Positions 39,126 to 43,404 of a DNA stretch of 64,000 nucleotides are shown one piece after another. How positions within the stretch are numbered: position 1 is the first letter of the stretch; each line of letters begins with the position of its first letter. The stretch is taken from the NCBI GenBank assembly GCA_009835325.1, contig VXWP01000117.1, positions 33,111-97,110 on the forward strand, written 5' to 3'. Origin of the DNA: Gemmatimonadota bacterium. GTDB lineage: Bacteria > JAAXHH01. A model generated the notes under the pieces. The model was not told the origin of the DNA and did not search any database. It saw only the letters and a list, made by a program, of their open reading frames with translations. A program made the position numbers and the translations under genes.

Positions 39126-40271
39126 ATGACCACGAGACCTGCATACCCTGACCCGGTTGCCGATACAGCCGTGCTCGACGAGTGTAGCACGGCAAGGCTG
39201 GATGCGCTCTACGAGCGACTGACCTCCCTCAGGAAGGTATCCATCGGCTATCCGTGCAATCACCGGTTCGATTTCGCCCCGCTCTACCGCTTCATGGAGT
39301 TTGCCGTCAACAATCTGGGCGATCCGTTTTCGGGCAGCAACTTCCGCATGAACACCCACGACTTCGAACGCGAGGTGATCATGACCTTTGCCCGCCTGAC
39401 GGGGATCGACAGCGAAGACTGCTGGGGTTACGTAACTAACGGCGGGACGGAGGGGAACATGTACGGCCTCTATCTCGCCCGGGAAATCCATCCGGACGGC
39501 ATCGTCTATTTCTCCGAGGATACGCATTACAGCGTCAGCAAGATACTCAGGCTGCAACATACGCGCAATATTATGATTCGAAGCGGTCATACCGGTGAAA
39601 TGGACTACCGGGACCTGGAGGAGAGCATCCGGATCCACCGCGATGTGCCGCCCATCGTGTTCGCCAATGCCGGTACGACGATGACGGGCGCCATCGACCG
39701 GCTGGACCGCATACGGGAGGTCCTTGAAAGACAATGCACGCCGAACGCGTACATTCATGTCGACGCGGCCTTTTCGGGCATGATCCTGCCCTTCGTGGAC
39801 GATCCGCCGCCCTGGCACTTCGGCGATGGCGCCGACAGCATTTCCATTTCGGGACACAAGATGATCGGATCTCCCCTGCCGTGCGGCGTGGCCATGGTAC
39901 GGAAGACGCACATGGAACGTATTTCCCGTTCGGTCGAATATGTGGGCGCGCTCGATACCACCATAAGCGGATCCAGAAACGCGATTACACCCCTGATGCT
40001 CTGGTATGCCCTGCGCCTGCACGGCGACGACGGGTTTCGAGACCTGGTCGGCGAGTCCGTGCGAAAAGCGGCCTATGCGGAGAAGGCGCTGAACGAGATC
40101 GGCGTGAAGGCCTGGCGTAATCCCTACTCGGTCACGGTCGTCTTTCCCCGGCCGCCGAAAGCTATCATGGACAAATGGGTGCTAGCCGGTTCCGGCGACA
40201 TAGCGCACCTCATTGCCTTGCCAGGCGTTACCTGGGAAACGCTTGAGGAATTCATTGACGATATGCAGTGA
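39126..40271 (+). CDS. hdc: pyridoxal-phosphate-dependent histidine decarboxylase (Gram-negative HdcA type)
   Basis: Strong collinear similarity to enterobacterial/Vibrio PLP-HDC (CWGYVTNGGTEGNMYGLYLAREIHPDGIVYFSEDTHYSVSKI; PLP-Lys motif SISGHKMIGSP). ~380 aa. Confidence 0.85.
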   Translation: MTTRPAYPDPVADTAVLDECSTARLDALYERLTSLRKVSIGYPCNHRFDFAPLYRFMEFAVNNLGDPFSGSNFRMNTHDFEREVIMTFARLTGIDSEDCWGYVTNGGTEGNMYGLYLAREIHPDGIVYFSEDTHYSVSKILRLQHTRNIMIRSGHTGEMDYRDLEESIRIHRDVPPIVFANAGTTMTGAIDRLDRIREVLERQCTPNAYIHVDAAFSGMILPFVDDPPPWHFGDGADSISISGHKMIGSPLPCGVAMVRKTHMERISRSVEYVGALDTTISGSRNAITPLMLWYALRLHGDDGFRDLVGESVRKAAYAEKALNEIGVKAWRNPYSVTVVFPRPPKAIMDKWVLAGSGDIAHLIALPGVTWETLEEFIDDMQ

Positions 40272-40693
40272 GCAACCGAGAAATCCACATGAATGAAATC
40301 ATCATCCCGGTAAAAGAACCTCCCGGCACCCTGGCGGCCGTCTCCGAATCGCTCGCCCGTGCCCAGATCAACATCGAATTCATAGAGGCCCGCGTGGTGG
40401 GGGAGGGCGGCATCATCGTATTGCGCGTGGACCGCTATGACGCCGCGCTCCGGATACTGAGGGATGCGGGGTACCGCGCGGTTACCGAGGATGCCCTTGT
40501 GCTCGACCTGGAAAACCGGCCCGGTGCGCTGGCGGAGGTGGCAAGGCGCCTGGCGGACGCCAGGATCGGAATCCGCAGCCTTCGGATCGTCGAACGGGCC
40601 GGTGAACGAAGCCTGGTGGCGCTGGTCGCGGATGATCCGGACGCCGCCCGGCAATTACTCGCCGCGGAGCTTGTGGGTGGGGGCGGGACTTGA
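40268..40693 (+). CDS. ACT domain-containing protein (two ACT-like halves)
   Basis: The GTG at 40268 overlaps the hdc stop (GTGA). An alternative ATG lies at 40289. The beta-alpha-beta-beta-alpha-beta pattern is repeated twice. Confidence 0.65.
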   Translation: MSNREIHMNEIIIPVKEPPGTLAAVSESLARAQINIEFIEARVVGEGGIIVLRVDRYDAALRILRDAGYRAVTEDALVLDLENRPGALAEVARRLADARIGIRSLRIVERAGERSLVALVADDPDAARQLLAAELVGGGGT

Positions 40694-42050: not shown

Positions 42051-42078
42051 GCCTTACCTGCAGGGGGTTCCACCATGG

Positions 42079-42189
42079 CTACTTGGACGGCTTTACCTTG
42101 CGCTTCCTCTTCATGTCGCGGATCGCGGCCTTGCGCCTCTGTTCCTTGCGGAACCGCTGTCTCCGGAGTTCCTTCTGGCGTTCGCGCAT
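42079..42189 (-). CDS. unannotated 36-aa highly basic small ORF (MRERQKELRRQRFRKEQRRKAAIRDMKRKRKVKPSK) 28 nt upstream of glnA
   Basis: Translated by hand. AGGAG lies 5 nt before the ATG. Below the ORF-track size cutoff. Confidence 0.3.
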   Translation of the reverse strand: MRERQKELRRQRFRKEQRRKAAIRDMKRKRKVKPSK

Positions 42190-42417
42190 ACCTGCTCCTG
42201 GTGCGTGTCCGGCACCTGGACCGGACGGTTGTTTTAGGCTCCCGAAGACCCGGATCGAGCTGTTCTTCGGCGAGCCCTGACTGCTCGGATTCGATCAGAT
42301 TGTCATTGATTGCAGCTTCAAGGACGATTATACAATCTAATCCGGGCAGCCTGTCCGGGCAATCAGTTTCTCGGTCGTTCAACACCCCGGTATTCCGTCT
42401 TCCGACTGGAGTCTTGC

Positions 42418-43404
42418 GTGAACCAGGTACGTCTACTGTCTAGATCGGATATGGCTTCCGTCCTCACCATGCCGGATGTCATCGAAGCCGTGGAAGAGGG
42501 GTTTCGGTCCGCGGGCGAGAAAGACGACGTCCCCGTCCGCCTGCCCGTCCACGTAGCGGACCGGCCCTCCGTCGCGCTTTTCATGCCGGCCTACCTTGCC
42601 GGATCGCATACGCTGGGCGCCAAGGTCGTTTCCGCGTTCCACGACAATCCTGCCAGGGGCCTTCCGATGATCACGGGATTCTACGTGCTGTGCGACGCGG
42701 AGACCGGGCGGCTCATCGCCCTGATGGACGCCACTTTCCTCACCGGAATACGTACGGCGGCCGCGTCCGCGGTGGCCACGAAGTACCTGGCGCGCAAGGA
42801 TGCCAGGGTACTGGGCATCATCGGGACGGGCGTCCAGGGCCGGTTCCACGTGGACGCGATCCTGGCGGTCCGCCCCATCGAACGGATCGTCGTGTACAAC
42901 CGGACGCCCGAGCGGGGACACGCACTCGCCGATGACCTTTCGTCCCGGGGGATATCCTGCCGCGTGGCGGAAACCGCTGCCGAATGCGCGGCCGAAGCGG
43001 ACGTGCTCGCGGTCTGCACGTCCAGCAAGTCGCCCCTCTTCGACGGCGGCCTGGTTCGTCCCGGCAGCCACGTGAACGCCGTTGGCGTCTACACCGCCGA
43101 CTCGCAGGAACTGGACGCCGGGTTGATCCGGCGGGCCCGCGTGTTCGTCGATACCTACGAAGGCGCGCTCGAGGAAGCGGGCGACATCATCGTCCCCCTG
43201 CGGGCGGGCGAAATCTCCAGGGATCACATCCGCGCCGAACTGACCGAACTGGTGACCGGCAGGAAGGAAGGACGGACCGGTGACGGGGAGATCACCGTTT
43301 TCAAATCCGTGGGTTACGCCATGGAAGACGCGGTCACCGCGCGCCTGGCCTATGAACGGGCAGCGGATTCGGGGGTAGGCGCTACATTCGACCTGGAAGC
43401 ATGA
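42418..43404 (+). CDS. ornithine cyclodeaminase / mu-crystallin family protein
   Basis: Rossmann GIIGTGVQG and typical OCD-family N-terminus. Start placed at GTG 42418 (GGAG 8 nt upstream). ATG 42451 is an alternative. Confidence 0.8.
   Translation: MNQVRLLSRSDMASVLTMPDVIEAVEEGFRSAGEKDDVPVRLPVHVADRPSVALFMPAYLAGSHTLGAKVVSAFHDNPARGLPMITGFYVLCDAETGRLIALMDATFLTGIRTAAASAVATKYLARKDARVLGIIGTGVQGRFHVDAILAVRPIERIVVYNRTPERGHALADDLSSRGISCRVAETAAECAAEADVLAVCTSSKSPLFDGGLVRPGSHVNAVGVYTADSQELDAGLIRRARVFVDTYEGALEEAGDIIVPLRAGEISRDHIRAELTELVTGRKEGRTGDGEITVFKSVGYAMEDAVTARLAYERAADSGVGATFDLEA

Follow-up and report, generated by a model that had tools for sequence, protein, structure and literature searches.

What does a 36-codon reading frame immediately upstream of a glutamine synthetase gene do, and is it a gene at all? 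Glutamine synthetase (GS) is the gateway of nitrogen assimilation, and its control differs among the major lineages that have been studied, which use adenylylation, a feedback-inhibited GS together with GlnR and TnrA, the small proteins IF7 and IF17, or 2-oxoglutarate, GlnK and sP26. We examined the question at a locus in a 64,000-nucleotide stretch of DNA from a Gemmatimonadota bacterium (GenBank assembly GCA_009835325.1, contig VXWP01000117.1, positions 33,111 to 97,110 of the forward strand), referred to here as the window. The small open reading frame (sORF) runs on the minus strand from an ATG at 42189-42187 to a TAG at 42081-42079, ends 28 nt before the ATG of glnA (42050), and encodes the 36-residue peptide MRERQKELRRQRFRKEQRRKAAIRDMKRKRKVKPSK. 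We find that it is a real gene, and that strong purifying selection acts on the protein it encodes. The reading that we favor, although tentatively, is that the glnA mRNA also yields this microprotein, which may act in trans by binding the acidic GS dodecamer and modulating it.

An initial annotation of this DNA had proposed a 36-residue minus-strand frame at 42189-42079, with an AGGAG Shine-Dalgarno (SD) sequence at optimal spacing and a stop 28 nt before glnA, and our reading agrees on each of these points, placing the AGGAG 5 nt before the ATG. Two of its counts required revision. Lys and Arg account for 19 of the 36 residues, not 18, and the gap to the divergently transcribed gene, a member of the ornithine-cyclodeaminase (OCD) family (Pfam OCD_Mu_crystall), measures 264 nt from the sORF ATG to the OCD ATG at 42454 rather than about 370 bp; the gap left by gene callers in other assemblies is 228-262 nt. 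The description of the frame as unannotated holds only in part, as the exact 36-residue product has been called as a gene on contigs in 77 public-assembly blocks, where it remains unnamed and without Pfam matches. Across all six frames of the window, the sORF is the sole ORF of at least 30 residues in which Lys and Arg make up at least 40%. Of the three ORFs that overlap it, one (112 residues) uses a different minus-strand frame and two (80 and 65 residues) lie on the plus strand; none of them is supported by the codon-position pattern of variable columns described below. Because the in-frame upstream extensions found in some genomes are not conserved, we take the SD-preceded ATG to be the real start; the GGAG core of this SD is unchanged across alignments of 24 and of 18 relatives.

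We assembled a set of 36 related loci, in which the peptide occurs in 16 variants and its DNA in 25 distinct versions. In every one of the 36, the sORF is intact and lies directly 5′ of glnA, so that the loss of frame among relatives on which the initial annotation had said its claim would fall was not observed, and its proposal of a real small gene tied to glnA stands. Seventeen of the 36 come from a scan based on GlnA, restricted to one genome per species, that yielded 80 loci. Eighteen of these encode a GlnA of more than 85% identity; one (L010) retains just 52 nt of upstream sequence and was not judged, and all 17 that remain, with intact upstream regions, carry the sORF directly upstream of glnA. 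It is found in none of the 61 loci with a GlnA of 73% identity or less. The rest of the 36 show the same adjacency: six contigs from an exact-protein look-up of assemblies, seven metagenome contigs, and six short contigs that carry the most divergent variant.

The substitutions among these loci have the form expected of a protein. Over the first 33 codons of the DNA alignment, variable columns fall at codon positions 1, 2 and 3 in the ratio 7/4/25, and the ratio of nonsynonymous to synonymous differences per site (pN/pS, Nei-Gojobori) is about 0.09 overall and 0.02 over codons 1-22. Pairwise pS runs from 0.29 to 0.73, similar to the 0.35-0.98 obtained for glnA between the same genomes, and the frame is also intact in a low-GC lineage with 15 synonymous differences. 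Given this codon-position pattern, the low pN/pS and the glnA-like pS, we conclude that selection acts on the peptide and not on some RNA or DNA element that overlaps it. Every one of the 36 loci has the same residues 1-18, and a single locus (R19H) departs from the common sequence within residues 1-21. Changes are limited to positions 19, 22-25, 28, 30, 32 and 34-35, and the C-terminus stays basic throughout. The peptide is more conserved than GS itself. The average pN/pS for glnA was computed unaligned and is distorted by an insertion in two loci (L006 and L011). This insertion is 21 nt (seven codons) long and lies near the GlnA N-terminus, giving a match length of 1368 instead of 1347 nt.

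We found no relatives of the peptide outside its own family. An exhaustive HMMER profile search of 1.84 billion cluster representatives returned just three clusters, all belonging to that family, and a word-indexed search of 5.8 billion proteins returned eight close relatives and no others. There was no family match in Pfam (E ≤ 10), NCBIfam (E ≤ 1) or PHROGs (E ≤ 10), and no significant match among PDB sequences (E ≤ 10), where the best hits, barley RIPb and glia maturation factor (E 0.5-1.4), were rejected as compositional. In the searchable literature, neither the peptide sequence nor a description of any sORF upstream of glnA was found. As judged by these searches, the family is an orphan, and the bacteria that carry it are uncultured members of a single clade, labeled Gemmatimonadota or Latescibacterota by depositors. 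Within the clade, many isolates and samples have names that point to sponge, coral or marine sources, which suggests, from the names alone, where these bacteria live. Similar basic ORFs beside glnA in other lineages proved to be chance-level or non-coding matches. Among the latter, Syntrophaceae and Deltaproteobacteria loci share a conserved stretch of about 80 nt located roughly 100-400 nt downstream of glnA (L052 3895-3975 and L034 1695-1775; also in L053, L029, L046, L048 and L037). It reads as a 27-residue basic ORF in two loci and is interrupted by in-frame stops in the others, and is probably not a gene but a non-coding 3′ element. The 3′-untranslated-region (3′-UTR) small RNA GlnZ of enterobacterial glnA offers a comparison.

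The peptide is extremely basic. Its 19 Lys and Arg residues against four Asp and Glu residues give a net charge of +15 and a pI of about 12, and eight of its 11 Arg residues lie within the invariant residues 1-18. AlphaFold2 (AF2), given a small family alignment, predicted one continuous helix over residues 2-31 with a mean pLDDT of 86, followed by a basic and less ordered tail. There is no hydrophobic segment, Cys/His metal site or signal peptide. We also considered a host-targeted effector, based on the resemblance of the segment 'KRKRKV' to a eukaryotic nuclear localization signal, and rejected it: the segment is variable (KLKRKIK, KKKKKVK), no secretion signal is present, and a contig with the label marine metagenome carries one of the variants.

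The neighboring GlnA scores 457.6 bits against TIGR00653, above the cutoff, and its best solved relatives are the type I-alpha (GSI-alpha) enzymes of Methanosarcina mazei, Methanothermococcus and Bacillus subtilis. It matches M. mazei 8tfb and B. subtilis 4lnf over its full length, whereas the GSI-beta enzymes of E. coli and Salmonella match residues 151-447 alone. By these matches it is a GSI-alpha GS, nearest to structures that do not have the GSI-beta insertion. The GlnA proteins of the clade are also strongly acidic, with net charges of -23 to -32 as opposed to -11.9 ± 7.9 in 61 relatives.

We infer that the sORF and glnA are co-transcribed as one transcript, since they lie on the same strand, 28 nt apart, and neither a terminator nor a promoter separates them. 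Of the 36 spacers, 27 are 28 nt long, six are 29 nt and three about 73 nt; their sequence varies except for the SD-like element of glnA, which reads AGGTRAGG or AGGAGAGG. The 28-nt spacer showed no terminator, and neither across it nor across the sORF is there a conserved structure. Gene content beside the pair differs among close relatives; thus sORF-glnA is a fixed unit in otherwise fluid surroundings. Absolute linkage to glnA while neighboring genes change points to GS, or to the expression of glnA, as the functional context of the peptide, and its invariance indicates that it contacts something equally invariant.

Taken together, these observations lead us to propose that the operon encodes a microprotein dedicated to the GSI-alpha GS, as a subunit or as a regulator, that evolved independently of other such partners. 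We regard this proposal as plausible yet still short of probable. A single sORF-glnA transcript would start at a TATAAT-type promoter bracketed by GATTG repeats. The peptide would be a free-standing helix of net charge +15 that acts in trans on the co-expressed enzyme, docking electrostatically on the acidic dodecamer (about -28 per subunit) and modulating its assembly, stability or activity. As the peptide would be induced together with glnA and not expressed in opposition to it, a role in stabilizing, activating or buffering the enzyme would be more natural than an off-switch of the IF7 type.

Several points weigh against a GS-binding role. A charge of +15 is seen more typically in proteins that bind nucleic acid. 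The predicted helix is not amphipathic, its hydrophobic moment staying below 0.2 in all 18-residue windows. The acidity of GlnA lends weak support at best, because the proteome encoded by the window is itself acidic (median of about -2.9 per 100 residues in a crude ORF set, compared with -6.2 for GlnA), about ten other GlnA relatives are equally acidic (-23 to -29) and have no adjacent basic sORF, and the extra negative charge is dispersed, with a modest excess in residues 1-25 and 251-275 and no single patch. The GS-binding motif of the GlnR tail, XG(E/D)XSRF, is absent from the peptide. Adjacency to glnA would be expected just as much of a cis-acting upstream frame. Finally, the precedent of sP26 is shaky, as cryo-EM found no stable binding (PMC11957540).

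The features of the region on which the competing explanations bear are collected in the table.

Table. Features of the sORF-glnA locus, in coordinates of the 64,000-nucleotide window.
Feature	Coordinates	Strand	Evidence
glnA, type I-alpha glutamine synthetase, 449 aa	40701..42050	minus	Pfam Gln-synt_N and Gln-synt_C; TIGR00653
28-nt spacer with SD-like AGGTAAGG of glnA (42059-42052)	42051..42078	minus	sequence; no terminator or promoter
sORF, 36 codons plus TAG, polybasic peptide, predicted single helix	42079..42189	minus	ORF and translation, conservation, codon-position variability, pN/pS, AF2
Shine-Dalgarno AGGAG, 5 nt 5′ of the sORF ATG	42195..42199	minus	sequence reading
5′-UTR hairpin, GTCCGG/CCGGAC stem, variable 8-13 nt loop, just 5′ of the SD	42206..42227	minus	inverted repeat and RNAalifold
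Second 5′-UTR hairpin, 5 bp	42236..42251	minus	RNAalifold
Operator-like cluster, four GATTGY hexamers, two per orientation	42298..42364	both	inverted repeats
Promoter-like box TTGTATAAT, putative -10	42327..42335	minus	invariant in clade alignments

The charge and shape of the peptide could also describe a general polycation that binds nucleic acid or the ribosome, either a lineage-specific ribosomal or RNA-chaperone-like protein or an autoregulator that binds a hairpin in its own 5′-UTR, with the position before glnA merely providing nitrogen-responsive expression. The initial annotation had suggested binding of this kind on the basis of composition. Basic peptides that bind rRNA or other RNA include bS22, bL37, Thx and lambda N. 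A net charge of +15, a pI of about 12 and a single non-amphipathic helix are typical of this kind of peptide, and the invariance of residues 1-18 would fit a very conserved partner such as rRNA. The leader also has candidate RNA structure. It is about 130 nt long and poorly conserved in sequence, and it contains two small hairpins just upstream of the SD that show compensatory changes. In the RNAalifold analysis, one pair of the hairpin nearer to the SD appears as GC in eight, CG in four and UG in three sequences, with 97% paired; in the second, one pair switches between GC and AU in six sequences, with 91% of cells paired. For the two combined, 92.7% of cells are paired and 14 two-sided changes were counted, compared with 5.9 in shuffled alignments, and slid controls were far lower. 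However, the loops vary freely in both sequence and length while the peptide is invariant, which makes recognition of its own hairpin unlikely. Searches of Pfam (E ≤ 10), of NCBIfam (E ≤ 1) and of PDB sequences including ribosome structures (E ≤ 10) matched the peptide to no family of ribosomal or RNA-binding proteins, and a housekeeping role leaves linkage to glnA in 36 of 36 loci unexplained. We consider a general polycation unlikely, though a serious alternative.

Three other candidate structures in the leader were set aside. A plus-strand "terminator" reported by the terminator scan is the hairpin at 42206-42227 read backwards, and its T-run is not conserved. A pairing between 'TCCTTG', located after the TATAAT, and the sORF SD was proposed by RNAalifold and is not relied on, as the columns are invariant and the bases probably untranscribed. 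A glnA or glutamine riboswitch was rejected on the results from Rfam, which showed no riboswitch or leader family in the whole window at gathering thresholds or in the region at E ≤ 10, aside from a chance match to the L2 leader.

A different kind of explanation is that the sORF works in cis, as an upstream ORF (uORF) whose translation controls that of glnA through termination-reinitiation coupling or through nascent-peptide arrest. In the arrest form, the ribosome would be held at the sORF stop, possibly in response to a metabolite such as glutamine or arginine, and from there, about 18 nt from the glnA ATG, it would block loading of the 30S subunit on the glnA SD. The position and size of the sORF are typical of leader peptides, and its codons are rich in Arg, Lys and Gln, all nitrogen-costly. 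From footprint sizes, the spacer of 28-29 nt found in 33 of the 36 loci would set a terminating ribosome beside the glnA initiation region. Arrest peptides, among them SpeFL, TnaC and the fungal arginine attenuator peptide, are characteristically conserved in sequence, and the sORF fits in this respect.

The distribution of the conserved residues speaks against a cis-acting role. The invariant part of the peptide is its N-terminal 18-21 residues, while the residues that would lie nearest the peptidyl-transferase center (22-35) vary (KPSK, KSAK, KTTK, KSAAK), as do the penultimate codon and the stop (TAG or TAA). There are just three Gln codons and they do not form a run, and the spacer of about 73 nt in three loci would abolish occlusion. 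glnA moreover retains its own conserved SD. We considered that this SD might be sequestered and then opened by translation of the sORF, and rejected the idea, as no such structure is conserved. The initial annotation had also suggested a regulatory leader peptide. In the form of a classical attenuator this is disfavored, because there are no terminator or anti-terminator structures, synonymous sites are as free as they are in glnA, and it is the amino-acid sequence that purifying selection holds so strongly. A cis-acting uORF in general seems a doubtful explanation, and an arrest peptide that senses a nitrogen metabolite and gates GS synthesis by holding a ribosome 18 nt from the glnA start seems improbable.

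The DNA upstream of the leader raises a further possibility, that the peptide is a minimal GlnR-like co-regulator whose helix binds a GATTG operator, alone or on feedback-inhibited GS, and so autoregulates the promoters of sORF-glnA and of the OCD gene. The four GATTGY hexamers form two nested 7-nt inverted-repeat pairs (TGATTGC...GCAATCA and AGATTGT...ACAATCT) that bracket the putative -10 box. Four of the 37 GATTGY sites in the window lie within these 67 bp; the paired pattern is unique within the window, and it recurs at the same place in about 30 loci of the clade. The array sits in the intergenic region common to sORF-glnA and the divergent OCD gene, and judging from the repeats it is likely an operator for some regulator, common to the OCD gene. 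There is no recognizable -35 element with the putative -10 box, a sigma-70 scan finds no full promoter, and the intergenic region has no sigma-54 site even with three mismatches allowed. A role for the peptide at this operator would be consistent with a gene order like that of glnR-glnA in Firmicutes (PMC9249791), with the conserved array around the -10 box and with the fact that no regulator gene is evident nearby. But the peptide has no helix-turn-helix (HTH), MerR domain or dimerization element, does not contain the GlnR tail motif, and at 36 residues is too small for the known sequence-specific bacterial DNA-binding folds. We regard this as highly unlikely. The weakest alternative, a chance ORF or GC artefact in the glnA leader with conservation imposed by DNA or RNA constraints, can draw on the shortness of the frame and the many spurious ORFs of high-GC genomes, several of which overlap here, and is refuted by the 7/4/25 pattern, the pN/pS of 0.09, the conserved SD and start, and a frame intact in 25 DNA versions.

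Convergent with glnA, on the plus strand at 39126-40693 of the window, are a gene for a pyridoxal-phosphate (PLP)-dependent decarboxylase of 381 residues and one for a protein of 141 residues with a pair of ACT domains, which overlap by 4 nt and are kept beside glnA in most loci of the clade. Together with the OCD-family gene, they may be part of one nitrogen and amino-acid module with glnA. In individual loci we also observed a Big_2-domain protein inserted downstream of glnA (L082 and L084, 5823-6455) and a TIR_2-domain protein beyond a GT9 gene (L085, 643-1464).

These readings differ in what they would mean for the control of GS. If the peptide binds GS, it would represent a new regulatory mode and a very small, synthesizable ligand for a GSI-alpha enzyme. 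If it is instead a cis-acting sensor, it would be the first case of peptide-based translational control of glnA, and the arrest form, if right, would be still more novel than a trans-acting partner. On either reading, the sORF is a clean example of a functional protein below the usual annotation cut-offs of 50 residues.

Among the systems already described, the cyanobacterial factors IF7 and IF17 (GifA and GifB) offer one comparison. They are small basic proteins that bind acidic GS electrostatically in an arginine-dependent manner (PMC6316151), and the likeness to the sORF peptide lies in the action of small, positively charged proteins on an acidic GS. There is no sequence relationship to IF7 or to the C-terminal region of IF17, as seen in the profile search of 1.84 billion representatives and in Pfam, NCBIfam and the PDB, and IF7 (65 residues) and IF17 (149 residues) are both longer than the 36-residue peptide. 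Their genes are unlinked to glnA, and under NtcA, which represses them, their expression runs opposite to that of glnA; the gifB leader also contains a glutamine riboswitch. The sORF, by contrast, shares its strand with glnA and ends 28 nt before it, and Rfam detects no riboswitch here. IF7 and IF17 also target cyanobacterial GS, while the presumed target here is a GSI-alpha enzyme in a non-cyanobacterial lineage.

Another precedent is the 23-residue sP26 of Methanosarcina mazei, which has been reported to interact with GS and to enhance it (bioRxiv 10.1101/2020.05.06.080432). Like the sORF product, it is very small, lineage-restricted and directed at a GSI-alpha enzyme, presumptively so in our case, and it is co-induced with GS under nitrogen limitation (bioRxiv 10.1101/2020.05.06.080432). 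The two are not homologous, as the sORF peptide has no homologues outside its clade. sP26 is made from its own leaderless RNA far from glnA; the sORF, on the other hand, has a leader of about 130 nt and an SD and lies beside glnA. The binding of sP26 was not reproducible in cryo-EM (PMC11957540).

In gene order, the comparison is with Firmicutes, where GlnR is encoded just upstream of glnA and its short helical C-tail enters the side pores of the GSI-alpha enzyme (PMC9249791). The sORF shares the position directly upstream of glnA, on the same strand and with no terminator between, in 36 of 36 loci, but the analogy with GlnR and TnrA is positional only. The winged-HTH, MerR-type domain is not found in the peptide (no Pfam match at E ≤ 10), which at 36 residues is too short to hold one. 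Measured against the GlnR tail motif XG(E/D)XSRF (PMC9249791), the peptide has neither the G nor the SRF, its nearest segment being LRRQRF. Just the 'RF' dipeptide in RRQRFRK is held in common, and the sORF peptide is far more basic than the tail.

Two further groups resemble the peptide in more general ways. The proteins bS22, bL37, Thx, bL34, bS21 and lambda N are similar in size, extreme basicity and helical propensity; profiles for bS21, bS22, bL34, bL36, bL37 and Thx gave no match in Pfam, NCBIfam or the PDB, and strict linkage to glnA would be atypical of such proteins. SpeFL, TnaC and the fungal arginine attenuator peptide are likewise conserved peptides of 24-36 residues directly upstream of a metabolic gene. 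Unlike them, the sORF has no Rho- or terminator-dependent attenuator architecture and a spacer of just 28 nt, and its C-terminal residues and stop context vary while its N-terminus is invariant.

In sequence-based comparisons, then, the peptide is a member of none of these groups: not IF7/IF17, sP26, GlnR/TnrA, the small ribosomal proteins or the attenuator leaders. What it appears to share with them are functional analogies alone, in basicity, size and operon position. Should its proposed partnership with the enzyme prove true, it would join IF7/IF17, sP26 and the GlnR/TnrA tails as a fourth, independently evolved small-protein partner of GS, and would be the first of them to be translated from the glnA mRNA itself.

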